IMG/VR virus record: IMGVR_UViG_3300005549_000002
Location: 8,613-72,612 of that record
DNA from: a virus
Strand: one strand, 5' to 3'
DNA: 64,000 bases
The notes beneath the pieces were generated by a model, which was given only the letters and a program-made list of their open reading frames with translations, was not told the origin of the DNA and made no database searches. Shown in pieces: positions 11,931 through 60,548 of this stretch. A program made the position numbers and the translations under genes. Each line of letters begins with the position of its first letter. Within the stretch, counting starts at the first letter, position 1.

Positions 11931-12244
11931 GCTGCAACTTCAAGCTGCCGACCGTCGCGCTGCCGCTGCCGTCGCTCGCGCTCCCGAAAATACCGGCGCT
12001 CCCGTCCTTCGACCTGCCCGACGTCGACTTCCCGATCAACTTGAAGCTGCCGAAGATCGCGCTGCCGCTGCCGTCGCTGTCCTTGCCGAAAATACCGGCG
12101 CTGCCCTCCTTCGCGCTGCCCGATCTCGGCGAGCTCGGCATCAAGCTGCCGAAACTCCCGACGGTCGCGCTGCCCATCCCCTCGTTCGGCCTGCCGAAGA
12201 TCCCGAGCCTTCCGACCTTCAAGCTCGAGTGCCCGTTTGACTAG
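11927..12244 (+). CDS. Leu/Pro-rich protein of three tandem ~33-aa repeats
   Basis: KLP(T/K)(V/I)ALP(L/I)PS..LPKIP x3; ATGA-coupled. Confidence 0.55.
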   Translation: MSCNFKLPTVALPLPSLALPKIPALPSFDLPDVDFPINLKLPKIALPLPSLSLPKIPALPSFALPDLGELGIKLPKLPTVALPIPSFGLPKIPSLPTFKLECPFD

Positions 12245-18945: not shown

Positions 18946-21900
18946 ATGAGTGGGATCCTAGCCAATAGCTCGACCGCCACGATGGTCGATGCCGACACGA
19001 CGCCCGACAATGCGCGGAGCGGCTACGTCACCGCCGACCAGATCACGCTCGGCGTCACGGGCACGCCGGTATCGACCGTGTGGTCGATGGCGAAGCCCTC
19101 GGCGGAGACCGCGGCTTGCGAGCTGTCGTCGTCGACGGACCCGAACCCGACCTTCACGGCGACGGTCGACGGCTACTTCACCGTCGTTTGCGTCGTCGAC
19201 GGGACGACGACCTACGTCCTTCGCATGGCGGTCGCGCGCGTCGGCGTGGTGAGCACGCTCACGGCGGTGCGCATGCTGCCGATCTTGAATGCGAGCGTGC
19301 CGACGCCGGCGACGGGCCGGACGCTCTTCTCGTCGTCCGATCTCAACGATCTCGCCCAGAAGCTTCCCGACGGGATCACCTATGCGCTCGCGGGCGGCGC
19401 GGGCGGCGGCGGGGGCGGCAGCGGCAGCGGCGCTTACGCCACGATCGCAGCGCTCAAGGCGATCAGCTCGACGCTCCTCGCGACCCTGGACGACGGCGTC
19501 TCGCTTGCGTACGTGACCCCGCTCCGCGCCTGGTTTGTTTGGCAGGCCGCGAGCACGGTCGCCGACGACACGACCGATTTCCTCAGCGTTGCGGTCACGG
19601 TGAACGGCGCCGCGGCGGGGCGCTGGCGCCGGCTCGACTGGGCGCACCCGGCGTGGCGCGAGCAAGCCGCCTGGTTCGTGGATACGGCGGGCTCGAACGC
19701 GAACGACGGGGCAACCGCGCTCACGCCCGTGAAGACGGACGCGGAGATCCAGCGGCGCTGGGGCGCGGGGGTGCGGGCGCGGCTCACGGTGCCGGTCACG
19801 ATCACCTACGCGCAGGCTCCCGTCGGGCAGACCAACTACCTTTTCGAGCTCGGCTCGGGCGCTGCGCTCAGCATCGTCGGGACGCCGACCATCACCAAGC
19901 CCGGCACGATCCTGACGGCAGTGCAGGCGCAGGTGCGGACCGCGGGGGCCGAGCTTGCGTGGGCCATCACGGCGACTGGGCTCGACGCGACGGATGTCGG
20001 CAAGCTCGCCTTCATTACGGCGAGCGGCACCGGCGCCAATGTTGGCGCCTACGCGATGGTGCTGAAGGACGAGACGGGCGGCAAGCTCCGCGTGTCGCCT
20101 TTCGGGACCGTTGACGCGACGACCGCGGCGTTCACCCAGCGCACGCCGCAGGTGGGCGACACGATCGAGATCCGCACGCCGACGACGCTCAGCGTGGGGT
20201 CGATCGATTGCCATGGTGCAGCCGCCGGCGTAACGTCGGCCGGCCTTAACCGGGTGCTGTTCGATTCGGTTACCCTTGATTCTGCCAGCACGGCCGACGG
20301 CGGGATCTATGGTCGCAAGGCGAGCGTCTATTACGCCCGGTCGATACTCAACGGGATCACCTGGATGGGTGAGGGCACCGGGGGGAAACCGCCGCACCTG
20401 ATGCGCGGTGGTGGGATCGGGACGGCGCAGCTGTACGTGCGCAGTGGCGGCGCCAACAGCATTACTTGTCCAGGCTGCCTTGGCACGGTGTCCGTGGGCG
20501 CGAACGGGCACGCCACGATCACGGCCGACACCTATTTCCAGAACAGCGGACTCACGGTTGCGCGGGGAGCCTTCGTCAACTCCCAGGGACTGGCGTTCTT
20601 CGACAGGAGCACGTCGGACGCCTCGTTGGCAGTGACCCCCGGCGGCTTTTGCCAGCAGAGCGGGGCTGTGCCCGATTGGGGCGCGGCGAACGCCGGCCAC
20701 GGGTTGAATGTCCAGTCGGGCTCCAGCTACGTGTACGTGACGAAGCCGACCATCAACAGTGGTCTCGGCGCCGGGCGCGAAGCGAAGGTCGGCGGTACCG
20801 ACAAGCTCTACTCAGCAGTTCCGTACATCGAGCCCGCGAACAACGCCGTCTTGGTCCTCAACGACGGCACCGACGGGCCCGCGGCGTATTACCAGACCTA
20901 CGCGACCATCGCGCTCTTGAAGGCGATCACGGCGACGCGGCTCGGTAACCTCCAGGACGGGCAGCGCGTCTACGTCGCGACGCTCCGCGCGTGGTTTGCC
21001 TGGCACGCGGCGAGCGCCGTTGCGGACGACACCGTCGCTTTCCTTTCCGTTGCTGTCACCGCGAACGGGGCAAGCGCGGGCCGGTTCGTGCGGCTCGGCT
21101 GGGCGCACCCGTCGTGGCGGGCGCAGACGGCGTGGTTTGTCAGCACCGCGGGGAGCAACGAGAACGACGGGGCGACGGTGGGCGCCCCCGTGCTGAGCGA
21201 CGAGGAGATCGCGCGGCGGTGGGGCGCGGGCATGGTGCTGACGGTGCCGGTCACCGTCACCTATGCCCAGAGCCCGACGACGACGACGAACCTCGACGTC
21301 GGCTACGCGGACGGCGGCTCGCTCTCGCTCGTCGGGACGCCGACGGTGACGAAGGCGGGTACGGTCATCTCGGCAGTGCAGGCGCAGGTGCGCACGGCCG
21401 GATCGGAACTCGGCTGGGCCATCACGGGGACTGGTCTCGGTGCAACCGAGGTCGGCAAGATCGCGGTCATCACGGCGGGCACCGCGAACAACATCGGGGC
21501 GTACGCCGGCATCCTGAAGGACGAAACCGGCGGCAAGGTCCGCATTTCGCCGTTTGGTAAAGCAACCGCCGACGGTCTCTTTTCTCAAGTGACGCCGGTC
21601 GCGGGCGACACCGTCGAGATCCGCGAGAATACGACCGTTCTGAAGGTCGCTTTCATCAACGTGCAGGGGCTCTCGCAGCTCGCGGCCGTCGCGAGTCCCG
21701 TGCAGAATGTCGTTGTCTTCGACTCCCTTCTCCTCGACGGGAGCGTCGGCGGTAGCCTCAATGGCGGAATCGTTCGCAACGAAGGAGCTCAGATCTCCTA
21801 CGTGAGGTGCACGCTGCAAGACCTCATTCTTGCTAGCGCGCCGTCCACATTCTCCAAGCTGCAGTCGGTTTGCGGTGGGCTGATCACCGCCGGCGCCGGG

Positions 21901-24900
21901 GGAGTCGACCTTCGCGGCAATATCATCATGCGTCAGGTCGGTGTGCTCAACACCATCATCTCTGAATCGGCACCTACTGGAAATGCGAGCTTTCAGGCCG
22001 ACAATTACTTCCAGAATTCACAGCTCAGCATGAACGCCGGCTGTCCGGCGGTTACCCAGGGCATCGCTTTCTTCGATCGATCCTCGAGCGACGCCACCTT
22101 CACCTTGGGAGCCTCGTCGAACGGCGGAAGCGCCTACGTGCGCCAGACGGGCGCCGTTGCCGACTGGGGCACCGCTAACGCCGGGCACGGTCTCGTCGTG
22201 CGAAGCGCGAGCTCGTACGTCTACGCGACGAAGCCGACGATCAACTCGGGGCTCGGCGCGGGTCGCGAAGCACTTATCGGCGGCACCGACAAGCTGCTGA
22301 GCGCCGTCCCGTACATCGAGCCGGGCTGCAACGCCATGGTGACGTCGGCCGATAACATCGACGGCCCGGCCGTCTTCTATTCGGCTTACGCCACCATCGC
22401 GCTCTTGAAGGCGATCTCGGCCAACCGCCTCGCCGGCCTTGTCAACGGGCAGCGGGTGTTTGTGACCACGCTCCGCTCGTGGTTCGCGTGGGACGCGACC
22501 AGTGCGGTGGCAGACGACACGACGGATTTCCTGTCGGTGGCCGTGACCGCGAACGGCGCCGCGGCGGGGCGTTTCGTCCGGGTCCTTTCCGACACGCATC
22601 CGTCATGGGTCGCGCAGACCGCCTGGTTTGTCAGCACGGCGGGCAACAACGAGAACGACGGGCTGACCTTGGGCACGGCCGTCAAAACCGACGCGGAGAT
22701 CCAGCGGCGGTGGGCTGGCCCTGGCAAGCGCGGGCGCATCGCCGTCACGGTCACGATCACCTACGCGCAATCGCCGGCCGGCGAGACCAACCTAATATTT
22801 GAAATCATCACGGGCGGGCAGCTGCGGCTTGTCGGCACGCCGACCGTCACCAAGGCCGGCACCGTTCTGACGGCGGTGCAGACACAGGTCCGAACGGCGG
22901 GCGCCGAGCTCGGATGGGCGATCACGGGCACCGGGCTCGGTGCGACCGAAGTCGGCAAGCTCGTCGCTATCACGGCGAGCGGCACCGGCGCGAATGTCGG
23001 CGCAACGGCGATGATTCTTAAGGACGAGACGGGCGGCAAGCTCCGGATCTCTCCGTTCGGCACGCTGGCCGAGGCGACGACCGTGTACACCAACATCACC
23101 CCGCAGGTAGGTGACACGATCGAAATCCGCGACGTGGCGGCAACGACGCTTACCCTTGGGAAGATCGAAGCTTACTCGGCAGCGAGCGTCCAGATCCCGG
23201 CGGCCTTTGTCTGCGACTCGCTGATGCTCGACGGGGGTGCGAGCGCCGTTGGCAGCGTCTACGCCGCCGGTCCTCTTGTCATCTATACCCGTTGCATTCT
23301 CAGCAAAATGATTTTGAACGGGCACAGCGCCCCTTCGACAACGCCGCATTCGGTGCGCGGCGGCGGCATCATTGGGGCAGTGTTCAGCATCCGGAATTTG
23401 GCTGCGTTAACGTCAGTCGGAATTCTAGCGCCGCTTACGATCCGCCAGGGCGGCAACGTGTTTTTACAGCAAGACTGCTACTTCCAAAACGCTGGTGTGA
23501 CCGTGGCCCTTGGCGGTATGGCGCAAGGGACCGGCAACGCTTTCTTCGACCGCTCGACCGCAAGTTCCAGCCTCTTCGTCCAAGAGGGCGGGCGGTACGT
23601 GGCGACGGGTGCGGTGCCCGACTGGGGCACGGCCAACGCTGGCTACGGCGTCGTCGTGCAAAGCAACGCCAGCTACGGGTACGCGACGAAGCCGACGATC
23701 AACAGCGGCCTCGGCGTCGGCCGCGAGGCGATTATCGGGGGCACCGACAAGCTCTACAGCGCGGTTCCTTACGTCGAGCCGGCGAACAACGCCGCGTTGG
23801 TGCTCACCAACGGCACCGACGGCCCCGCGGTCTTCTATTCGGCCTATGCGAACGTCGCCGCGCTCAAGGCGATCTCGTCGAACCGCCTGGCGGGTCTGCA
23901 GGACGGCCAGCGCGTCTACGTCGCGACCCTCAAGTCCTGGTTCGCTTGGCACGCTGCGAGTGCCGTCGCCGATGACACGACGGATTTCCTCTCTGTCGCG
24001 GTGACGGCCAACGGCGCGAGCGCCGGGCGCTTCGTTCGGCTCGCCGACGCGCATCCCGCCTGGCTCGCCCAGACGGCGTGGTTCGTCAGTACCGCGGGCT
24101 CGAACGAGAACGATGGCGCGACGGTGGGCGCTCCGGTCCTGACGGACGCCGAGATCCAGCGGCGGTGGGGTGCGGGCGCGCGGCTTTCCGTTCCGGTGAC
24201 GGTCACGTATGCACAATCGCCAACCGGTATCACCAATTACAATGTCGAGATTGTCACCAATGCCTCGCTCACCTTGGTCGGCACGGCGACGGTGACGAAG
24301 GCGGGCACCGTCATCTCGGCGGTGCAGGCGCAGGTGCGCACGGCGGGCTCTGAGCTCGGGTGGGCGATCACGGCCACGGGGCTCGACGCGACCGATGTCG
24401 GGAAGATCGCCGTCATCACGGCTGGCACAGCCGGAAACATCGGCGCATATGCGGCTGTCCTGAAGGACGAGACGGGCGGCAAGGTGCGCGTTTCCCCGTT
24501 CGGTAAGTTCACCGCGAACACATCGCCGTTCACGCAAGTGACGCCGGTCGCGGGCGACACCATCGATATTCGTGACCCTACGACGCTAAAGGTGGGGACG
24601 ATCGAAGTCAGGTCGTTGACGAACGACAACTTGACGGGAACCGTCGTCAACAACTATCTGATGTTTGATTCGATCCGCGAAAGCGGCGATGCCAACGATG
24701 GCAATGGCGGCGTTTGCGCGAACCGCGTCACCGTCTTTCATTGCGTGCGTGGCGCCATCGATGCCATTTCGCTCAGCGGCAGCACCGGCAGCCTCTCGTC
24801 GCACAAGTTATGTGGTGGACTCGTGCACAACGCGAGTCCTTCATTCGGCGTCGTGTTCCGCGGTGGCACCGTCGGCACCGTGCACCAGAGTGGTTGCCTT

Positions 24901-25287
24901 ACGTCGATTACAGCATCGGCTGGATCGCTATGCATCTTGCAGGCTGATACTTATTTCCAAAACTGTGGTCTCACGATCAGCAGAGGAGGCGTCGCCAACA
25001 CACAGGGCGTCGCGTTTTTCGATCGTAGCAGTTCGAACAGTTCCCTTTTGGTTTCCGCGTTGGGCATGTGTCAGCAAACCGGCGCAGTGCCCGATTGGGG
25101 GGCCGCGAATGCCGGCCATGGTTTGACGATTCAATCCGCAGGCTCCTGCGTTTATACGACCAAGCCCACGGTCAACTCGGGGCTCGGCGCCGGGCGCGAG
25201 GCGCAGGTCGGCGGGACCGACAAACTCTACTCGGTTGTCCCCTACGTCGAAGCCACCAACAACGCAGCGCTCGTCCTACTCGCGTAA
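18946..25287 (+). CDS. Giant tail fibre/adhesin with four ~490-aa tandem modules
   Basis: 2113 aa; modules start YA(T/N)(I/V)A.LKAI near 19435, 20899, 22387, 23845. Confidence 0.75.
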   Translation: MSGILANSSTATMVDADTTPDNARSGYVTADQITLGVTGTPVSTVWSMAKPSAETAACELSSSTDPNPTFTATVDGYFTVVCVVDGTTTYVLRMAVARVGVVSTLTAVRMLPILNASVPTPATGRTLFSSSDLNDLAQKLPDGITYALAGGAGGGGGGSGSGAYATIAALKAISSTLLATLDDGVSLAYVTPLRAWFVWQAASTVADDTTDFLSVAVTVNGAAAGRWRRLDWAHPAWREQAAWFVDTAGSNANDGATALTPVKTDAEIQRRWGAGVRARLTVPVTITYAQAPVGQTNYLFELGSGAALSIVGTPTITKPGTILTAVQAQVRTAGAELAWAITATGLDATDVGKLAFITASGTGANVGAYAMVLKDETGGKLRVSPFGTVDATTAAFTQRTPQVGDTIEIRTPTTLSVGSIDCHGAAAGVTSAGLNRVLFDSVTLDSASTADGGIYGRKASVYYARSILNGITWMGEGTGGKPPHLMRGGGIGTAQLYVRSGGANSITCPGCLGTVSVGANGHATITADTYFQNSGLTVARGAFVNSQGLAFFDRSTSDASLAVTPGGFCQQSGAVPDWGAANAGHGLNVQSGSSYVYVTKPTINSGLGAGREAKVGGTDKLYSAVPYIEPANNAVLVLNDGTDGPAAYYQTYATIALLKAITATRLGNLQDGQRVYVATLRAWFAWHAASAVADDTVAFLSVAVTANGASAGRFVRLGWAHPSWRAQTAWFVSTAGSNENDGATVGAPVLSDEEIARRWGAGMVLTVPVTVTYAQSPTTTTNLDVGYADGGSLSLVGTPTVTKAGTVISAVQAQVRTAGSELGWAITGTGLGATEVGKIAVITAGTANNIGAYAGILKDETGGKVRISPFGKATADGLFSQVTPVAGDTVEIRENTTVLKVAFINVQGLSQLAAVASPVQNVVVFDSLLLDGSVGGSLNGGIVRNEGAQISYVRCTLQDLILASAPSTFSKLQSVCGGLITAGAGGVDLRGNIIMRQVGVLNTIISESAPTGNASFQADNYFQNSQLSMNAGCPAVTQGIAFFDRSSSDATFTLGASSNGGSAYVRQTGAVADWGTANAGHGLVVRSASSYVYATKPTINSGLGAGREALIGGTDKLLSAVPYIEPGCNAMVTSADNIDGPAVFYSAYATIALLKAISANRLAGLVNGQRVFVTTLRSWFAWDATSAVADDTTDFLSVAVTANGAAAGRFVRVLSDTHPSWVAQTAWFVSTAGNNENDGLTLGTAVKTDAEIQRRWAGPGKRGRIAVTVTITYAQSPAGETNLIFEIITGGQLRLVGTPTVTKAGTVLTAVQTQVRTAGAELGWAITGTGLGATEVGKLVAITASGTGANVGATAMILKDETGGKLRISPFGTLAEATTVYTNITPQVGDTIEIRDVAATTLTLGKIEAYSAASVQIPAAFVCDSLMLDGGASAVGSVYAAGPLVIYTRCILSKMILNGHSAPSTTPHSVRGGGIIGAVFSIRNLAALTSVGILAPLTIRQGGNVFLQQDCYFQNAGVTVALGGMAQGTGNAFFDRSTASSSLFVQEGGRYVATGAVPDWGTANAGYGVVVQSNASYGYATKPTINSGLGVGREAIIGGTDKLYSAVPYVEPANNAALVLTNGTDGPAVFYSAYANVAALKAISSNRLAGLQDGQRVYVATLKSWFAWHAASAVADDTTDFLSVAVTANGASAGRFVRLADAHPAWLAQTAWFVSTAGSNENDGATVGAPVLTDAEIQRRWGAGARLSVPVTVTYAQSPTGITNYNVEIVTNASLTLVGTATVTKAGTVISAVQAQVRTAGSELGWAITATGLDATDVGKIAVITAGTAGNIGAYAAVLKDETGGKVRVSPFGKFTANTSPFTQVTPVAGDTIDIRDPTTLKVGTIEVRSLTNDNLTGTVVNNYLMFDSIRESGDANDGNGGVCANRVTVFHCVRGAIDAISLSGSTGSLSSHKLCGGLVHNASPSFGVVFRGGTVGTVHQSGCLTSITASAGSLCILQADTYFQNCGLTISRGGVANTQGVAFFDRSSSNSSLLVSALGMCQQTGAVPDWGAANAGHGLTIQSAGSCVYTTKPTVNSGLGAGREAQVGGTDKLYSVVPYVEATNNAALVLLA

Positions 25288-36530: not shown

Positions 36531-38024
36531 TCAAATCAGGCCGGTTTCTGGGGAGATCTCCTCGGCCAGTTCATCGAGCGTTCGCCACTCGATCTCGGGC
36601 CGCTTGTCGCGCTCGATCTTGACCACGCGGGCGAGCAGCACGACGAGGCGCCGCCGTTGCTCCATCGGCAGGTTCTGCCACGCCCCTTGGAGCTGGACGA
36701 CATTCGCGAGCAGCGCCCGCCGGACGCTAACGTCCTCGAGCGGGGAGCGCTTCAACGCCTGCGCCTCGGCGGCATCGATCTTGGTGCGCGCGGCGTCGAA
36801 CTTCGCCATCCTCGCGCTGAACTCCTCGCGGGAGAGGTGCCCATCGACGCGCACCTCGAGCAGCCTATCGCGTTTTTTCTCGAGCGCCGCACGCTCGCGA
36901 GCGAAGTCGATCGTCGGCCGCACAATCCCGCCAGCTTTCGGCGCCAGCGCGATCTCCTTGCGCAGGTGCACGAGGCGCTCGAACATCGTCTCGCCGACGG
37001 CGCCGTCCGCCTCATGCACGGGCACATACCTCGCGCCGCAATTACGAAAGCACCGGTAGTAGTCCACGTAATTCTTGTCGGCGCCGAAGCCGCCGCCGTA
37101 CGCGGGACTCATGCGAGACCCGCACCGTCCGCACGAGGCGAGCCCGCGCAGGAGCCAGTGCTGGGTGCGCGAGTCGGTGCCCGCCTTCGCGCCGCCGAGC
37201 TTGCGACGGTCGAGCGCTGCCTGCGTTCGCGCGAAAAGTTCCGGCCGGATGATCGCGGGGTGCCGCCCTTTGATCCACACGCCAGTCGAGTTTTTGATCT
37301 CGCCGAGGTAGATCCGATTGCGCAGGATCCGGTTGACGGTCGTTTTATCCCACTTGCGCGACGCGTCCTTGCGCGCCTCGACGAGAATGTCGCCGCACGA
37401 CCACCCGCGGGCCGACAGCTGGAAGAATTCCAAGACGAGCTTGGCGCGCGGCTCGTCGAGCTCGAGCACGTTGCGCTCGACGCTGCGCGTGCGCGTGCCC
37501 GCTGCGATGGGCCGCCGGTAGCCGATCGGCGCCAGCCCCTCGACGTAGTAGCCCTGATTGCGCAGGAGCAGGCGCGTGCCGACCATGCGGAGCCTGATCC
37601 GCTTGTGCTCCTCGCGCGCCATCATCACGCGCATGTTGAGCATCGAATCGCCCTCGGGCGTCGTTGGGTCGAACATGTCGCCGACGAAGTAGACGGTCGC
37701 GCCGGCCTCGCGGATCTGGCGCATCGATCGGTAGGTGAACTCCGGATCGCGCGACCACCGATCGAGCTTGTCGCAGAGCACGAGATCGCCAGCGCGCAGC
37801 GATGCCATGAGCTGCTGCATTTTCTCGCGCCGTTCGAACTTCTCGTGAACGGCGCTCTCCGCCTCCACGTACCAGACGGCGACGCCCTTTAGGCCGCGTG
37901 ACCGCGCGTACGCTTGGAGGACGTTCTGCTGATCTTGGAGCGACGTACCGAGGGCCTGTTCGGGGGAACTGACCCTGGCGTAGCCGCGGACGCACCCGTA
38001 CTTCGGCGCCGGCGATTTGGGCAT
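36531..38024 (-). CDS. Large serine recombinase (integrase)
   Basis: YARVSS, KLDRWSR, recombinase domain (PIGY, ILRNRIYLG, HPAII), zinc ribbon CGRCG, coiled coil. Confidence 0.93.
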   Translation of the reverse strand: MPKSPAPKYGCVRGYARVSSPEQALGTSLQDQQNVLQAYARSRGLKGVAVWYVEAESAVHEKFERREKMQQLMASLRAGDLVLCDKLDRWSRDPEFTYRSMRQIREAGATVYFVGDMFDPTTPEGDSMLNMRVMMAREEHKRIRLRMVGTRLLLRNQGYYVEGLAPIGYRRPIAAGTRTRSVERNVLELDEPRAKLVLEFFQLSARGWSCGDILVEARKDASRKWDKTTVNRILRNRIYLGEIKNSTGVWIKGRHPAIIRPELFARTQAALDRRKLGGAKAGTDSRTQHWLLRGLASCGRCGSRMSPAYGGGFGADKNYVDYYRCFRNCGARYVPVHEADGAVGETMFERLVHLRKEIALAPKAGGIVRPTIDFARERAALEKKRDRLLEVRVDGHLSREEFSARMAKFDAARTKIDAAEAQALKRSPLEDVSVRRALLANVVQLQGAWQNLPMEQRRRLVVLLARVVKIERDKRPEIEWRTLDELAEEISPETGLI

Positions 38025-51607: not shown

Positions 51608-52186
51608 TGACAAGCGCCGAAACCTGGTTCGAGCTCGCCGAGCGCGAGTTCGAAAGCATCGTCGACGCCGAGGACGACGCGGCGAGGGCGGCGGTCGGCC
51701 ATGCTCGATCTGCACGACGGCAACGGCTTCGCGTCGAAGCTCTCGCAGGAAACCGCCGAGGAATACCGCAAGAGCATGCGCATCGTGAAGGAGCTGCAGT
51801 GCATCGACGCGGCCGCGCAAGAGGAGCCGACAGCGCCACCGACGGGGCTCGCATGAACCCCGGGCTCCTGCTCGTTTGCACGTTCTTTGTCGCCGGCCCC
51901 CTCGTCGGCATCCTGCTCGCGCTGCTCGAGATCGCTGCCGAGCTCCGAATCCACAACAACAACCGACGGGGCGAGCCATGAGCAAACGAAGCGAGGACAC
52001 GGAGGTGCTCGAACAGATTCGCCGCAAGGGATGCCGCTGGCCACACTGCAGGCAAGAAGCGAAGGTCACCAGAGTTTCTGCGCTTGACGCCTCCGACGGA
52101 TTCTCGGTGCCCCTCTGCGTCGAGCATGCCGCTGAGGGCGATCGCCTCGGATATTGGGAACCGTACGAAACGGAGCCGAGGGAACC

Positions 52187-52816
52187 ATGAAAGACTGGAC
52201 ACGACCGCGGCAGACCAAGCTCGCGCTCATCCCGGGGCAGCGCGTCGACGACGACGACGCCACCATTCCGGCGCTCGGCGATTCGATGCCGATCGCGACG
52301 AGGGCGCCGCCGAACCCGCCGCAGGTCGTCTTCACCGTGCCGGGCGATCCCGTCCCGTGCTCGCGCCCGCGCGCGGTGCCGCTCATGCGCGACGGCAAGG
52401 CCGTCCTCGGGCCCGGCGGGCGGCCCATCATCACCGCCTTCACGCCGACGGAAACCCGTCACTACGAGCAGCACGTCCAGCGCCACGCGCGCGCGGCGTT
52501 CGAGCATTGCGACGACTGGCGGCGCGTCTACGCGAAGAAAGAGGCGGTGCGCATCCACATGCACATCGTCCGCCGGCACTGGCGCGGCGACTGGGACAAC
52601 TTCGCGAAAGGCATCGCCGACGGCATTGCCAATAGCGGGCTCGTCTTCTTCAACGACAACCGGATCACCGAGGCGCTCATCTCGATGCGCACCGATCCGG
52701 ACGACGAACCGCGCGTCGAGGTGAAGGTCGAGCGCGCGACCAAGGATCTGCGGATGCAATTGTGGATGCAAATCGCGCTCGAGAACGGCTGGACGCCGCC
52801 GGCGAGGCCCGCGTGA
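52187..52816 (+). CDS. RusA-like Holliday junction resolvase
   Basis: FTVPGDPVP..RPR, DWDNFAKGIADG, FNDNRI. Confidence 0.75.
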   Translation: MKDWTRPRQTKLALIPGQRVDDDDATIPALGDSMPIATRAPPNPPQVVFTVPGDPVPCSRPRAVPLMRDGKAVLGPGGRPIITAFTPTETRHYEQHVQRHARAAFEHCDDWRRVYAKKEAVRIHMHIVRRHWRGDWDNFAKGIADGIANSGLVFFNDNRITEALISMRTDPDDEPRVEVKVERATKDLRMQLWMQIALENGWTPPARPA

Positions 52817-53136
52817 TGGCGCTCTCCCCCTTTTCCATGCACAAGGCTCGCCAGCGCGCGCTCGACGCCGCGCTCGAAGCCAAGCGCGGGCTCGATGCGA
52901 CCAGGTGGGTGGTCACCGTGGGCGTTTTCATCGGGCAGCTCGCGCGCGTCTGGAACGAGACGCTCACCGGCGCTCGCCTGGCGCTCTGCCTCGGCGTGCC
53001 CTTTTTTTCCTTGCTCGTGATGTCGAGCGCGCAAGCCATCTGGGCCCGGCGGGCGGCGCGGCGGATCGAAACGTACTGGCCGCTGCCGCCGCTGCCGAAG
53101 CTGCACCTCGGAGACGACGATGAGAACGACGAATGA
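52816..53136 (+). CDS. Small membrane protein
   Basis: Two hydrophobic segments; coupled. Confidence 0.4.
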   Translation: MALSPFSMHKARQRALDAALEAKRGLDATRWVVTVGVFIGQLARVWNETLTGARLALCLGVPFFSLLVMSSAQAIWARRAARRIETYWPLPPLPKLHLGDDDENDE

Positions 53137-53368
53137 CATTTACGACAAGCTCGCCGCGCACATCAAGCACTGGCGCAAGATCAAGGGCAAGGGCTTTAAC
53201 GCCAACCCGTTCGCCGAGCTGAACGAAAAGGTGCGCTGGCTCTGCTCGTACGCCGACGGACAGGAGAAAGTGCTGCTGCGATTCCTCTTGCGGCTCGAAA
53301 CGATCGGATTGGAGCAGACGAAACGCGCGCTGAAACCACGCGCGACGAAAGGAAGGGGAGCGACGTAA
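53120..53368 (+). CDS. Hypothetical basic protein
   Basis: GGAG RBS; 82 aa. Confidence 0.45.
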   Translation: MRTTNDIYDKLAAHIKHWRKIKGKGFNANPFAELNEKVRWLCSYADGQEKVLLRFLLRLETIGLEQTKRALKPRATKGRGAT

Positions 53369-53407
53369 GCAGCACGCAAAACGGTAACGGCAAGGAGGAT
53401 AGGGACC

Positions 53408-53980
53408 ATGCAAAAGATAAAACTGCGACTGAACGGTGTGCGACCTCTCATGATGCACAACGGGCGACTCGCCGACCCGATGAACGAATACGTGCGCGAG
53501 ATGAAGAAGATTACCGGCAAGGGCAAAAAGAAAACGGACGATGACCTTCTCAAGCTGCGCTGGCTCGAATGGCGTGGTGGCCTCTACGTCGATGAGAAGG
53601 GTGCGCCGTGCATGCCCGGGGACAACATCCACGCAGCGCTGGTCGAGGGTGCGCGCAAGCAGCGCCTCGGCAAAGACGTCGATGCGGCGATCATGGTGGA
53701 TGAGCCCGAGTTCCCGCTCAAGTACGAGGGAACGCGAGACGTGCAAAAGCTCTACGACGATCCGCGGTTCGTCGACGTGCGTGGCGCCGTCGTTGGCAAA
53801 GCGCGCATCATGCGAACGCGGCCGATCTTCCGGAATTGGTCCCTCGACATCGAGGTGAATTTCGACCCATCGCTCGTGAACGAGGCGCAGGTCATCGAGG
53901 CTGCACGCGCATGCGGAGAGCAGATCGGTCTCGGCGATAACACGCCGCGCTTTGGTCGCTTCTTGGTCGAGCAGATTTGA
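53408..53980 (+). CDS. Stand-alone RAMP/Cas7-like RNA-binding protein (candidate effector)
   Basis: Three RAMP-type motifs: N-terminal strand LRLNGVRPLMMH, PCMPGDNIHAAL (cf. P.IPGSSLKG), C-terminal Gly loop IGLGDNTPRFGRF; AAGGAGG RBS. Confidence 0.65.
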   Translation: MQKIKLRLNGVRPLMMHNGRLADPMNEYVREMKKITGKGKKKTDDDLLKLRWLEWRGGLYVDEKGAPCMPGDNIHAALVEGARKQRLGKDVDAAIMVDEPEFPLKYEGTRDVQKLYDDPRFVDVRGAVVGKARIMRTRPIFRNWSLDIEVNFDPSLVNEAQVIEAARACGEQIGLGDNTPRFGRFLVEQI

Positions 53981-53982
53981 GC

Positions 53983-54385
53983 ATGGCGGTGCGTGGCGCG
54001 GCGATGCGTGTCATGGTCGGACCAGGTCGGGTCAGGCGACGCAAGGCATGGAGTTCTCGGCTATCGGAAGGTGGCCGTGAGCTCTGTGGTTGGGTTTGGC
54101 GTGGCGGTGCACGTCAAGGCGGGTCTCGGCAGGGCGCAGCATGGCAAGGAGCTGTCCGCGATCGAGAGATTGCGAACAGCACTGTTGGTGCGGTCGGGAT
54201 GGGTCTGGTTGGGCAGGGCCAGGATGGGCATGTCCAGTCCCGTCATGGCTCGGTTTGGCAGGAGTTTGGCAAGGAGCGATCGCCCGTTCGAGAGGATGGG
54301 CGGTTGCACTATGGCGGTGCGTGGCCTGGCTCTGTTGGCCGTGGCGCGATCGGTCGCGGAAGGGCAGGGCGCGGCAAGTTGAGGA
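53983..54385 (+). ncRNA. Array of four NN-GGY pentamer tracts separated by GNRA hairpins (candidate guide RNAs)
   Basis: Tracts 53983-54052, 54086-54150, 54185-54275, 54311-54385; hairpins 54051-54084 (GGAA), 54151-54180 (GAGA), 54276-54307 (GAGA). Confidence 0.75.
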
Positions 54386-54405
54386 GCTGTCAACAGTCGA
54401 CGAGC

Positions 54406-54596
54406 CGAACTCGTGGTGAACGCGTGGGGACGTCTAAGCTCGGGCCTGACGACGTCCGCGCGGTACTCGGGCTCCACGATGTCGGCGCCATGCGCAAGGA
54501 CATAGCTGAGCTGTTCGGAATAGCCGGCAAGTCCGTGGAGCGAATCGTCTATTTGGCGTCACGTGGAAGCACATCCACGAGGAGCGGAGCCGATGA
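54406..54596 (+). pseudogene. Frameshifted C-terminal remnant of an HNH endonuclease
   Basis: RGERVGTSKLGPDDVRAV..KDIAELFGI..RIVY, then GVTWKHI in another frame (shift at 54553-54554). Confidence 0.55.
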
Positions 54597-54775
54597 CCGC
54601 GAAGAAGCGCAAACCGAGTGAGGTGGAGGTGGTTGCGATGGCGATGTGGGCGCAAGGCAACTGGCATCATATGGCCCCGCCGCAGATTGAATGGCGACAG
54701 CGGCCGCTGGGCACAAGGGCGATGTATCGCGGCTTCGCTCGCGCATTCCTCCGCGCACTGAGGGGGGCTACTTGA
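54593..54775 (+). CDS. Small hypothetical protein
   Basis: GGAG RBS; ATGA overlap with the HNH remnant stop. Confidence 0.45.
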   Translation: MTAKKRKPSEVEVVAMAMWAQGNWHHMAPPQIEWRQRPLGTRAMYRGFARAFLRALRGAT

Positions 54776-54793
54776 CCGCCGCCGAAACCAGAC

Positions 54794-54928
54794 GCGCGTT
54801 CGAGAGACTGCGGGCAGCGCCTGTGGTGTCGGTCGCTTGGCGGGGTTGGCTCTGGTCCGGCATGCTCGGGCATGTCCCGGCACGGCTCCGGCAGGTCCGG
54901 GCATGGCACGGCGTGGCAAGGCGAGGGC
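54794..54928 (+). ncRNA. Fifth NN-GGY unit preceded by a GAGA-loop hairpin
   Basis: 17 pentamers 54837-54922 with one 1-nt slip; lead-in CTGTGGT identical to unit 2. Confidence 0.65.
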
Positions 54929-54955
54929 CTTCGCCGGCGTTGAAAGGAATCGACA

Positions 54956-55435
54956 ATGAACGAATCGGTCAAAGTAGCACTTGTTCACCCGATAGACTTC
55001 GAGTCGATCCGAAAGGGCGACGCCATCGGGCAAGCACAGATCGAGATCATTTCGCAGGTGCGCTACTCGGAAGATCCCGAGCGGTATCGAATCGAGCAGA
55101 TGCAACTGAAAGGACAGATTGAGCAGCATCGACCCGATCTCGCAGTGGTCATGTCACGGCGATGCCTGCGCGTGCTCACCGATCCGGAGCTCGTCGGCTA
55201 TCGGCAAACACGTCAGGAGCGCGACGTTCGATCGCTGAAACGCAACGTTGCCCTCGGCGCTCGCGTCGACCGATCGCAGCTTGGTGAGACCGAAGTGAGA
55301 CGTGCCGATTGTCTCGACATGCACATCGCGGTGAGCGCCATCGAAGCGGATCGGAATCTGCGGGAGTCGAGAAAGAAGATTCGTGAACTGGACGCGCCCC
55401 CGGAAACGGCTCGTCTGCAAGGGAGGACGCAATGA
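54956..55435 (+). CDS. Hypothetical protein, possible partner of the RAMP/array module
   Basis: AAAGGA RBS right after the fifth tract; codon style like the RAMP gene. Confidence 0.55.
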   Translation: MNESVKVALVHPIDFESIRKGDAIGQAQIEIISQVRYSEDPERYRIEQMQLKGQIEQHRPDLAVVMSRRCLRVLTDPELVGYRQTRQERDVRSLKRNVALGARVDRSQLGETEVRRADCLDMHIAVSAIEADRNLRESRKKIRELDAPPETARLQGRTQ

Positions 55436-55716
55436 CGATACTCGTGACCATCAAACTGCTGGAAGCGTCGCCGGCGAGCACCGCAACGGCGTACGTCGAC
55501 GATCACACGGTCGCGTGGGCGACCGAAATACGGCCCGAGCGCGCCGTGCGCGAGTGCATGAAACTCACCCGCGCCGTCGTCCTTGGCGAGCTGCGCTTCG
55601 CGCTGCCGTTCTGCGGCAAGCGCTTCCACGTGCCGTGGTGGGAAAAACGCGCGCGCGTTTCGCTGCGCGACGCGGCGCGCCTGCGCAAGAGGGGGCTCGC
55701 CCCGGCGGTGACATGA
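55432..55716 (+). CDS. Hypothetical protein
   Basis: GGAGG RBS, ATGA overlap. Confidence 0.45.
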   Translation: MTILVTIKLLEASPASTATAYVDDHTVAWATEIRPERAVRECMKLTRAVVLGELRFALPFCGKRFHVPWWEKRARVSLRDAARLRKRGLAPAVT

Positions 55717-56312
55717 CGCTAGCAGCGCGCCGACGAGCGACGGGCACGCTCTCGGCGGCGCAGGAGACGGCGCTCCGAAAGTACTTTCGGCGCAGCGATG
55801 ATCTCAGCGCGGCCTCGTCGTCCACCGGCGCCATGCTCGAGCGACAGAGCTCGAAGTACCGCGATTCGGAGGGGCATCGCATCGCGGCAGCCGAGAGCTG
55901 GGTGTACATGCACCTGCACGAGGACCACACCAAGAGCGAGCCGAGCTACACGCCCGAGTACGGCGAGTTCCTCGGCGTCGCTGCCCTCTCGCGCCAGCTC
56001 ATGGGGCTCTCGATGATCCACCACGCGGCGCTCGAGTGCTTTTACGGCACCGTCGGGATGCACTGGGAACAAATCTTCGAACGCTCGCGCGAGATCGGCA
56101 GCATCTACCACCTGACCGAGACGGGGCAGCGGCTCGTCGTCGCGTCGAACCTCGTCGGGCACGCCCCCCACCGCGTCATCGAGGATCTCTTGCGCGGGCA
56201 GGAGGGTACGCCGACCGAGGAGCGCGATCGCGACATCCGCCGCATGGACGAGGAGGCGCGCGAGCTGCTCGCCGACGCCAGAGGAGCATTTGCCAAACTT
56301 GCATGCGGCTGA
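55713..56312 (+). CDS. Hypothetical protein (possible late transcription regulator)
   Basis: Coupled ORF near end of early rightward operon. Confidence 0.4.
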   Translation: MTLAARRRATGTLSAAQETALRKYFRRSDDLSAASSSTGAMLERQSSKYRDSEGHRIAAAESWVYMHLHEDHTKSEPSYTPEYGEFLGVAALSRQLMGLSMIHHAALECFYGTVGMHWEQIFERSREIGSIYHLTETGQRLVVASNLVGHAPHRVIEDLLRGQEGTPTEERDRDIRRMDEEARELLADARGAFAKLACG

Positions 56313-56515
56313 AGCGCAAGCGCGTCCCCGCGTACGTTTCGATCCGCGCCTGTGCGGATCTGGCGGGCTGCCATCACACGACGATGCGCAACTGGGCGAA
56401 GGCGGAAGGCGTGCTGGTGAACCGCGCCGGGCGCGATCGCATCTCGACCGATCGGCTGCGCAAGGCCTTCCCGGAAATCTACGAGCGCGTCGCCGACGAG
56501 GCGTTCGGCGGCTGA
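56303..56515 (+). CDS. Small HTH protein (excisionase/MerR-like)
   Basis: YVSIRACADLAGCHHTTMRNW. Confidence 0.55.
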   Translation: MRLKRKRVPAYVSIRACADLAGCHHTTMRNWAKAEGVLVNRAGRDRISTDRLRKAFPEIYERVADEAFGG

Positions 56516-58060: not shown

Positions 58061-59169
58061 AGCTCTCGATTGACATCGAGCGCACGCCCCGCGTCACCCA
58101 GCTGGAGGGAATGTTCGACATTCCCGAGGCGAAGCGCACGACCGCCAAGTTCCATTTCGACGTCCCGCTCGAGCAGCGCGACTGGCAGATCGGGCTCATC
58201 GTCGGCCCGTCGGGCGCCGGCAAGAGCTCGGCCGCGAGGCACCTGTTCGCCGACGCGCTCGTCTCGAGCTACCCGTGGCACCCGTCGCGAAGCCTGGTCG
58301 ACTCGTTCGATCCCGCCCTCTCGATTCGCGACGTCACCGCCGCCCTCAGCTCCGTCGGGTTCTCGAGCCCGCCGTCCTGGCTCAAGCCGTTCCACGTGCT
58401 GTCGAACGGCGAGCAGTTTCGCGCGACGCTCGCGCAGGCGCTCCTCGATGCGCGGCAGCTCGTCGTCGTCGATGAGTTTACGAGCGTCGTCGATCGCCAG
58501 GTCGCCAAGATCGGCTCGTGCGCGGTCGCGAAAGCCGTGCGCCGCGCCCCCGGCAAGCAGTTCGTCGCCGTCTCGTGTCACGAGGACATCGTCGAGTGGC
58601 TGCAGCCCGATTGGATCCTAGAGCCTCACGTGAGCCGATTCACGTGGAGGGAGCTTCAACGGCGCCCCGACATCGAGCTGGAAATCCGCCGAGTCCATCA
58701 TTCGCTCTGGCGGATCTTCGCTTCACATCACTATCTGACCGCCGAGCTCAATCACTCCGCGGTCTGTTTTGCCGCGCTCTTGAACGGGCGCACCGTCGCC
58801 TTCGACGCGTGGCTTCCCTTCGTGGGAAAACTTCGCGACAAGCAGAAGGCGCGGCGAGGCCACCGCACGGTCTGCCTGCCTGATTATCAGGGCGTAGGGA
58901 TAGGTCGCGCCCTGTTCGATACCGTCGCTAGCATGTGGTCTGGGCTCGGCTTTCGTGCATTCTCGAGGACAGCGCATCCGGCCGAGATCCGAAGCCGCAC
59001 GCGGGGCGGAAACTGGCGCCTCACCCGCCACGGGTTCACCGCCAAAGACACCGGCCGGCAGAAGTCGCTCGCGAAGTCGCGCACGACGAGTCGCCGCGCT
59101 GCCTCGTTCGAATGGATCGGCCCGCCGATGCCGCTCGAGCAAGCGAACAAACTCCTCAATGCAACCTGA
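58042..59169 (+). CDS. ABC-type ATPase fused to GNAT acetyltransferase
   Basis: GPSGAGKS, LSNGEQFR, VVDEFTSVVDR, SCH; GNAT FASHHYL..RTVCLPDYQGVGIG. Confidence 0.85.
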   Translation: MPRLDLELSIDIERTPRVTQLEGMFDIPEAKRTTAKFHFDVPLEQRDWQIGLIVGPSGAGKSSAARHLFADALVSSYPWHPSRSLVDSFDPALSIRDVTAALSSVGFSSPPSWLKPFHVLSNGEQFRATLAQALLDARQLVVVDEFTSVVDRQVAKIGSCAVAKAVRRAPGKQFVAVSCHEDIVEWLQPDWILEPHVSRFTWRELQRRPDIELEIRRVHHSLWRIFASHHYLTAELNHSAVCFAALLNGRTVAFDAWLPFVGKLRDKQKARRGHRTVCLPDYQGVGIGRALFDTVASMWSGLGFRAFSRTAHPAEIRSRTRGGNWRLTRHGFTAKDTGRQKSLAKSRTTSRRAASFEWIGPPMPLEQANKLLNAT

Positions 59170-59680
59170 CATCCGGATCGTGATCGCCCCGCGGGGATGG
59201 GTCTTCGTCGGGCTCTTCTCGCGCCGGGGCGCGCACTGCACCGTCGACGGCGGCTTCGTCGTGCGAACCTGGGGGACGAGCAAGGGGCTCGGCGAGCTCG
59301 CTCTTCTCGGACCGCTCGAGCGGACCGTGCTCGATCCTGCACCGTGCATCGAGCTGCCGAGCGCGGGCATCATCGCCACCTTGCGCTGCGACGCGGCGAA
59401 GTGGCAGGCGCTCTGCCGCGCAAGCGGCGACGAGCGGCAAACGAGCTTCGACTTGAAGAGCGGCGACGGGTACGGCGACGGCGACGGCGACGCAGCGGGC
59501 GACGGCTACGGCAACGGCTACGCCGGCGGCAACGGCACGCGCGACGGGGGCGGCTTCGGACACGGCGACGGCGCCAAGGATGGCGGCGGCTCGGGCGCGG
59601 GCGATCGCTACGGTCAGCGCGACGGCGACGGCGACGGCGACGGCCGCGCGTACGGGTACTCTGCTCGCGCGAGCGCTTGA
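59159..59680 (+). CDS. Phage protein with Gly/Asp-rich GDGYG tail
   Basis: RGWVFVG..VRTWGTSKGLGELALLGP domain followed by GDG repeats. Confidence 0.6.
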   Translation: MQPDIRIVIAPRGWVFVGLFSRRGAHCTVDGGFVVRTWGTSKGLGELALLGPLERTVLDPAPCIELPSAGIIATLRCDAAKWQALCRASGDERQTSFDLKSGDGYGDGDGDAAGDGYGNGYAGGNGTRDGGGFGHGDGAKDGGGSGAGDRYGQRDGDGDGDGRAYGYSARASA

Positions 59681-60348: not shown

Positions 60349-60394
60349 CGCGTCGTCGACAGCGTCGTCGACAGCGTCGTCGACAGCGTCGTCG
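60349..60394. repeat. 12-bp tandem repeat (GCGTCGTCGACA; encodes DDAV on minus strand)
   Basis: About 3.8 copies seen directly. Confidence 0.8.
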
Positions 60395-60548
60395 AGCGCG
60401 ACTCCCGCGGTCTCGACGTCGATAACAGCGCTCGATTCCCAGTGCTGAGCGACTGCCAGAGCCGCTTTCGCGTCGTCGAGCGACTTCTGTGCGCTCGCGC
60501 GGCGCTCGCGCATGAGAGCGAGCCTCTCTGCTGCTGCTGCTGCTGTAA

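Follow-up and report, generated by a model that had tools for sequence, protein, structure and literature searches.

VIPR (Viral Interference Programmable Repeat) systems, in print since April 2026, are virus-against-virus DNA-silencing systems of which seven types have been described (10.64898/2026.04.26.720920). Their guides, the vrRNAs, are defined there as tandem GGY/NN (YNNGG) pentamers of at least four and typically 9–16 units, with variable NN and a structured 3′ tail, and those of Escherichia phage SUSP1 have been sequenced and co-purify with the protein Vipr (10.64898/2026.04.26.720920). The guide mechanism of SUSP1 VIPR was demonstrated experimentally (10.64898/2026.04.26.720920; 10.64898/2026.04.26.720927; a further source on the mechanism is 10.64898/2026.10.15.759431), and 99 clusters with a five-nucleotide period were catalogued later (10.64898/2026.10.21.760802). 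Here we analyse a stretch of 64,000 nucleotides (nt) from the IMG/VR virus record IMGVR_UViG_3300005549_000002 (bases 8613–72612 of that record; henceforth the window, to which all coordinates without a contig name refer). A locus within it is very probably a VIPR locus, carried by a complete, probably temperate myophage of 72.6 kb. At the locus itself, the analysis shows a homologous protein with a matching predicted fold, the architecture of the repeats, a tail that covaries, a neighbour gene that is conserved and a viral setting. In order, it comprises the vipr gene, four tandem vrRNAs, an insert of ~400 bp, a fifth vrRNA and a vap-like gene (vap, vipr-accessory; Table 1).

Table 1. Coordinates of the VIPR locus features and of the recombinase gene in the window (aa, amino acids; ORF, open reading frame; HTH, helix-turn-helix)
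Feature	Position	Strand	Basis
vipr, 190-aa stand-alone RAMP/Cas7-like protein, G-loop GLGDNTPRFGRF (residues 174–185)	53408..53980	+	PDB, PHROGs, model
vrRNA1 tract, 13 GGYNN units from 53985, 8 exact	53982..54051	+	
vrRNA1 tail, 13-bp hairpin, GGAA loop, 12/13 paired	54053..54082	+	
vrRNA2 tract, 12 GGYNN units from 54088, 8 exact	54088..54149	+	
vrRNA2 tail, 13-bp hairpin, GAGA loop, 12/13 paired	54151..54180	+	
vrRNA3 tract, 15 GGYNN units from 54187 (10 exact), +1 slip, last unit GGCAA	54187..54274	+	
vrRNA3 tail, 13-bp hairpin, GAGA loop, 13/13 paired	54277..54306	+	
vrRNA4 tract, 14 units from 54313, 7 exact, then outer 5′ tail arm alone	54313..54391	+	
Apparent insert of ~400 bp in the vrRNA4 tail, two small overlapping ORFs	54392..54794	+	inferred, sequence only
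Small ORF, 65 aa, sub-threshold match to HTH_7 (resolvase-type HTH), E 0.024	54424..54621		Pfam
Small ORF, 60 aa	54593..54775		
Remainder of the split tail, inner GAGA-loop hairpin and outer 3′ arm GGCAGC (54813–54818)	54795..54818	+	
vrRNA5, 12 units from 54839, +1 slip, 5 exact units from 54900, short terminal hairpin 54920–54935	54825..54935	+	
Candidate vap gene (ORF159), 159 aa	54956..55435	+	synteny, hhalign, model
Large serine recombinase	36534..38024	−	PHROGs/Pfam

Judged by its sequence, the first gene of the locus encodes a true Vipr protein. Among all entries of the PDB, the sole real match was chain 36pp_D, annotated as “SUSP1 Vipr protein” (E 9.9e-31, 110 bits), with residues 2–188 aligning to residues 2–188 of the 202 residues of that chain, and the protein also matched phrog_4652, a family of unassigned function (E 1.4e-56); Pfam returned no family for either Vipr or the product of ORF159. 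The vipr frame is intact and preceded by a strong ribosome-binding site, AAGGAGG. AlphaFold2, run on a family alignment of 30 members, gave a model with a mean predicted local distance difference test score (pLDDT) of 93.1 and a predicted template modelling score (pTM) of 0.85, in which a beta-hairpin at residues 122–141 (with R138), read as the thumb, accompanies a helical pair at 27–58 (with K33) and the G-loop at 174–184. The elements of a RAMP fold, namely the RRM core, the thumb and the glycine-rich loop, are accordingly present in the predicted structure, and a Foldseek comparison with the PDB ranked Csm3/Cas7 subunits of type III-A and type VII complexes best (top match 9ash_F, E 1.3e-6, TMq 0.55; 86 chains at E ≤ 0.001). 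In SUSP1 Vipr, H17, R138 and D177 are vrRNA contacts and K33 contacts the backbone of the target DNA (10.64898/2026.04.26.720927). All four residues are identical in the window protein according to the 36pp_D alignment, and the SUSP1 pair E71/M72 corresponds to D72/N73.

An earlier reading of the window, made by a model from the letters alone (the sequence-only reading), had proposed a stand-alone RAMP/Cas7-like protein from a 190-aa ORF with three motifs. ORF and motifs are present, the motifs falling on the H17-bearing first strand, on the beginning of helix 1 and on the G-loop, and the homology to SUSP1 Vipr together with the structure comparison, in which Csm3 and Cas7 came out as the best fold matches, bears the assignment out. 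The proposed resemblance to VIPR was likewise confirmed by the 36pp_D match and the GGY-NN tracts described below; the novelty that the reading implied fell, this kind of system having been published already.

Pentamer tracts were located with a YNNGG score over eight consecutive units (maximum 24, threshold ≥ 20), applied to both strands of the whole 72,612-bp genome. Scores of at least 20 were obtained only in five clusters, all on the + strand (53977–54051, 54085–54154, 54184–54258, 54310–54384 and 54831–54936), and the maximum of the − strand across the genome was 19. When the region 53981–54955 was shuffled with its dinucleotides preserved, 3 of 300 shuffles reached 20 anywhere, as compared to 39 such positions in the real sequence. 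A simpler count of GG at 5-nt spacing reached at least 7 of 10 steps within the window only at 54088–54137, 54172–54261 and 54839–54939, again all on the + strand, and never exceeded 6 of 10 on the − strand. Over the 71 units, G1 is present in 89%, G2 in 80% and Y3 in 94% (C 69%, T 25%), and N4 and N5 are near uniform; the tracts have 12–15 in-register units and so lie inside the published range of 9–16. The 5-nt periodicity is real and far beyond chance, though not strict. The sequence-only reading had called it strict, which is where it went too far: the tracts it saw exist, and the five are the only ones in the genome, but the phase slips and many units are inexact. Its description of the region after vipr as non-coding applies to the tracts and not to the whole of 53981–55435, which also holds a conserved 159-aa gene and two small ORFs.

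The ends of the units differ. No hairpin precedes vrRNA1, which begins directly behind the vipr stop codon, and the short terminal hairpin of vrRNA5 resembles what is found in relatives, where the last vrRNA ahead of the following gene has such a short end. The first 15 nt (three units) of tracts 1 and 4 (53985–53999 and 54313–54327) are identical, which hints at a duplicated vrRNA start or at a 5′ element common to both.

GNRA-capped hairpins divide the first three units, just as the sequence-only reading had described. Because vrRNA1 starts at the vipr stop codon without a preceding hairpin, the hairpin is the 3′ tail of a unit; the sequence leading from tract into hairpin (GG-AG-C/T) is conserved, but not that between hairpin and next tract. 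The 14 tails that we aligned came from the window (four), the related contig L002 (nine) and the related contig L010 (one), and RNAalifold returned for them a shared helix of 13 pairs. Ten of the 13 pairs have changed on both sides with pairing kept in at least one sequence, and this covariation argues for selection on RNA structure. Folding of single sequences gave z-scores of −4.6 for unit 1 and −3.6 for unit 3 and was uninformative for units 2, 4 and 5. A search of 52500–56500 against Rfam yielded no family besides a sub-threshold gyrA match, and hence neither a hammerhead nor any other known ribozyme separates the units.

These data also bear on the proposal that the pentamer region is protein-coding, or else a DNA element such as an origin or a set of iterons. 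A Gly/Trp/Arg-rich frame of 214 aa is indeed open across the tracts (53977–54621), and spurious and real ORFs are hard to separate in a GC-rich genome, but no reading frame could maintain a 5-nt period, and an open frame of this kind is a by-product of stop-free G-rich sequence. Neither coding nor a DNA element would account for inter-tract hairpins that vary by compensatory substitutions, nor for the tract-plus-tail units that follow vipr in relatives whose sequence is otherwise unalignable, and the equivalent units of SUSP1 are sequenced RNAs that co-purify with Vipr. We therefore give this proposal hardly any credence and take the region to be a vrRNA array.

Vipr relatives are numerous. 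At E ≤ 0.001, 270 were found among 512 candidates, with homologues in Felixounavirus, Pseudomonas, Mycobacterium and Gordonia phages. We fetched 82 loci (L002–L083, two of them named phages and one, L009, a duplicate of the contig L002), of which 69 contain at least one pentamer tract by the YNNGG score, so that the check proposed by the sequence-only reading, whether homologues adjoin such tracts, turned out in its favour; the other 13 are without a tract in the fetched DNA, whose flanks may not be long enough to show one. In L002, with 94% Vipr identity, vipr is followed by at least 10 vrRNAs and preceded by one, and another stands past the accessory gene; in L010, with 68% identity, two vrRNAs follow vipr, one lies upstream and one past the following gene. 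Both share with the window the order vipr–array–ORF159 homologue, the hairpin tail and a GD-x-T G-loop, whereas the guide (NN) content is unalignable. At the DNA level, the window resembles L002 in vipr together with ~130 nt at the start of the array (80%) and in the accessory gene (72%), and the rest of the arrays shows no similarity, which fits hypervariable guides. L002 further differs in its uninterrupted series of at least 10 vrRNAs with outlying ones, in contrast to the four plus one of the window with their ~400-bp insert and none upstream. The extra vrRNA directly upstream of vipr has a short-hairpin end both in L002 (L002:3457–3560) and in L008 (L008:973–1090); at the counterpart of that site the window carries an unrelated 82-aa ORF (53120–53368) and no vrRNA.

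The gene that closes the locus, ORF159, is a conserved neighbour of vipr and the candidate vap of the locus. Its homologues adjoin vipr in 10 distinct contigs (L002, L010, L029, L062, L055, L064, L057, L015, L011 and L016), and its product was modelled (pLDDT 86.7) as a small N-terminal alpha/beta part followed by a long helical hairpin. BLASTP detected no similarity between ORF159 and the post-vipr genes of phage wV8 (146 aa) and Pseudomonas phage LESphi2, which are homologous to each other (E 3e-14). Profile comparison by hhalign aligned the ORF159 family collinearly with the vap1 family over 120 columns (probability 35%, E 4e-4) and with gene 40 of Gordonia phage Trine, located downstream of the Trine vipr homologue (39%, E 3e-4). 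A fold search of the model against BFVD gave three matches at E ≤ 0.001. A 267-aa Trine protein was matched with E 2e-4 and TMq 0.64 and is likened to Trine gene 40 by its equal length alone, and next came a 146-aa protein of Escherichia phage adrianh (E 3.6e-3), likened to vap1 by length alone. Among 48,161 PDB representatives, only generic helical-hairpin matches were obtained (Z ≤ 8.4). ORF159 is probably a divergent, remote relative of vap1.

The closest described counterpart is type II VIPR (Escherichia phage SUSP1 and a Pseudomonas fulva prophage; PDB 36pp), whose stand-alone Vipr of ~190–200 aa is collinear with that of the window. The SUSP1 system and the window locus have in common GGY/NN tracts of 9–16 units, structured 3′ tails, an array on the vipr strand and a ~150-aa accessory gene (a candidate one in the window) beside vipr, and both are phage-encoded and lack a nuclease, cas genes and a self-target. 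They differ in sequence (Vipr identity ~34%), in the G-loop (GD-W-R in SUSP1, GD-N-T in the window), in a scaffold that is looser in the window and in the tail, which is described as a pseudoknot for the SUSP1 clade and is a plain 13-bp GNRA hairpin here. The tail of wV8, a phage whose accessory product shares 99.3% identity with that of phiSUSP1, is unrelated in sequence to the window tail. In the window the array separates vipr from the accessory gene, whereas the SUSP1-type array follows both. By BLASTP, the accessory protein shows no resemblance to vap1, and the phage itself is high-GC, uncultivated and apparently a temperate myophage.

More distantly, Vipr resembles Csm3, Cmr4 and Cas7, with which it shares the RRM core, the thumb hairpin and the glycine-rich loop and which supply its top fold matches. 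These proteins assemble along a guide RNA with a constant period, as has been published for Vipr (10.64898/2026.04.26.720927). Sequence identity to Csm3/Cas7 is only ~11–13% (TM 0.45–0.56), their period is 6 nt as opposed to 5 nt in the window, and the window guide is non-contiguous. The window also lacks what marks class 1 CRISPR-Cas, namely cas partners, a repeat-spacer array and adaptation genes. Pfam detected no Cas domain among the 55 called proteins and Tandem Repeats Finder no CRISPR-like array, in agreement with what the sequence-only reading had stated, and no nuclease is encoded in the vipr locus.

Transcription and processing of the vrRNAs, ribonucleoprotein formation, DNA binding and silencing are carried over from the SUSP1 work, and by this analogy the array would be transcribed and cut into units of ~100–130 nt, each consisting of a pentamer tract and its 3′ hairpin tail. 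One Vipr protomer would occupy each pentamer, with the GGY bases flipped out and sequestered between thumb and G-loop, while the NN dinucleotides would pair with the target at two bases out of three. The R-loop would form from the tail-proximal end onwards, and the bound filament would repress transcription of a competing mobile element. The sequence-only reading had likewise supposed one subunit per GGY and a non-contiguous guide of NN pairs, which is the same as the experimental mechanism of SUSP1 VIPR and may by analogy be expected to apply here.

The array is not continuous. Of a tail, tract 4 is directly followed by no more than the outer 5′ arm, GCTGTC (54386–54391), which is complementary at 6 of 6 positions to the outer 3′ arm GGCAGC on the far side of the ~400-bp DNA. 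This DNA appears to be an insertion into the vrRNA4 tail. Counterparts of its 65-aa and 60-aa ORFs were not found by tblastn in 81 related loci, and in the 94%-identical L002 the array runs uninterrupted from vipr to the following gene.

For the target search, guides were read out as published, with NN pairs joined by one skipped base (NNx), on both strands. Exact seeds of eight or nine units were searched, and the full-length guide was then scored on the returned ±300-nt loci; IMG/VR was queried with 8-unit seeds of all five guides and the species genomes (one per species) with 9-unit seeds of two guides. In IMG/VR, the 3′ seeds of guides 1, 2 and 3 returned 14, 12 and 23 hits with best extensions of 20/26, 19/24 and 24/30, the last on a contig of 44% GC (L127). 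The seeds of guides 4 and 5 returned 14 (best 20/28) and 9 hits (best 19/24), and the 5′ seeds of guides 3 and 1 returned 18 (best 22/30) and 39 hits (best 22/26). In the species genomes, 12 hits were obtained for guide 3 (best 23/30) and nine for guide 2 (best 20/24). The best match of guide 1, 22/26, is located in two viral contigs of 90% identity and 62–65% GC (L210, 289–326, and L216, reverse strand), inside a neck/tail-completion gene, where the skipped bases coincide with codon wobble positions. Because, judged by the extensions of the other seed hits, 6 of 10 extra matches are expected a few times among 39, it is a lead and not a finding, and neither this match nor the 24/30 of guide 3 is significant. 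Within the phage's own genome no guide matches at 80% or more (best 18/24), and the same is reported for the VIPR systems of the original description (10.64898/2026.04.26.720920). In the reverse direction, 185 guides from 66 related loci were compared to the phage, and only short 8-unit guides reached ≥ 0.8, as chance predicts; the window guides matched 81 related loci (300 kb) no better than shuffled guides did.

Several of these results weigh against a functional VIPR locus with its own vap. The GGY scaffold is exact in just 46 of 71 units, tracts 3 and 5 contain 1-nt (+1) register slips, and the tail of vrRNA4 looks interrupted, being split by the ~400-bp insert. In the G-loop, W178, which in SUSP1 Vipr stacks on G2, and R179, which holds the pyrimidine Y3 (10.64898/2026.04.26.720927), are replaced by N and T. 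No natural target rose above chance, with all seed matches in IMG/VR and the species genomes extending at chance level, and the assignment of the vap gene rests on weak profile scores with probabilities of 35–39%. Loose scaffold, slips, split tail, replaced G-loop residues and fruitless target searches are what one would expect of a VIPR locus in decay, whose arrays would be leftovers, or a sink for the Vipr of a rival, and no working guide system. Decay, however, sits poorly with an intact vipr frame behind a strong ribosome-binding site, with the retention of H17, K33, R138 and D177, and with tails that covary. Whereas the G-loop consensus over 30 family members is G-L-G-D-(W/Y/F)-R-P-R-F-G-R-F, GD-(N/F/Y)-T-P is common to the window and its closest relatives (68–94% identity), and since GD-x-T is shared by the whole clade down to 68% identity, it speaks for a maintained variant rather than a lesion. 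L002, with the same type of G-loop and an exact scaffold fraction of 0.54, still keeps at least 10 vrRNAs. We thus consider decay unlikely and retain the interpretation as a VIPR locus with a probably working guide system.

The relation between G-loop and scaffold was compared over loci with a readable G-loop and at least 10 called units. The exact GGY fraction was 0.54–0.73 (mean 0.64) where residue 179 is T (four loci, namely the window, L002, L008 and L010), the 0.54 being that of L002, and 0.59–1.0 (mean 0.83) in the 30 loci with R, where it has to be considered that the four T-type loci form one clade and that the unit caller itself demands some conformity. The looser scaffold of loci with a T-type G-loop is therefore a clade-level association and a lead. 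Tentatively, and with considerable doubt on our side, the Vipr clade of the window might read a relaxed scaffold, in which a pyrimidine and one guanine would be enough and TGC, GTC and GAC would count, and would then represent a natural variant of repeat-code specificity. As a separate and similarly speculative point, the tail hairpin might serve as a recombination or insertion site for the gain and loss of units and even of small genes.

With this locus, the known carriers of VIPR come to include a complete myophage that is high in GC and apparently temperate. The locus offers three natural variations, the altered G-loop (N178/T179), the plain GNRA-hairpin tail and the divergent accessory gene, which are points of comparison for scaffold recognition by Vipr and for vrRNA processing. 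Since mechanism and family were published in 2026, no new question is opened.

The record represents a complete virus of 72,612 bp with direct terminal repeats of 100 bp and a GC content of 66.6%. PHROGs and Pfam identified genes for tail sheath, tape measure, baseplate hub and wedge and an amidase endolysin, and, because these are accompanied by a large serine recombinase gene, the soil phage carrying the locus is probably a temperate myophage. Other called proteins include a YqaJ/RecE-like exonuclease, RusA and a ParB-like protein (PHROGs, Pfam), and the vipr locus is situated in this early/DNA-metabolism region, downstream of RusA (52154–52816). The tail-sheath protein, compared to the species genomes as a clue to the host, had no relative there, and a scan for promoters and terminators gave no signal exceeding shuffles. 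The stretch is contained in one listed sequencing run, a DNA run that may be the source of the record, and in no listed RNA run.

Some further features of the window lie outside the locus. The tail-fibre region contains an ORF of 2113 aa (18946–25287) without PHROGs or Pfam matches at E ≤ 1e-5, and a 102-nt tandem duplication (11935–12123; 1.9 copies, 85% matches) lies in a − strand ORF of unassigned function between baseplate genes. A perfect 12-nt tandem repeat at 60350–60395 (3.8 copies, 100% matches) could be a protein-binding iteron or an operator. Finally, the ORF at 58955–59680 carries ~31 copies of a CGGCGA-like hexamer at 59461–59644, which encode a Gly/Asp/Tyr-rich repeat.

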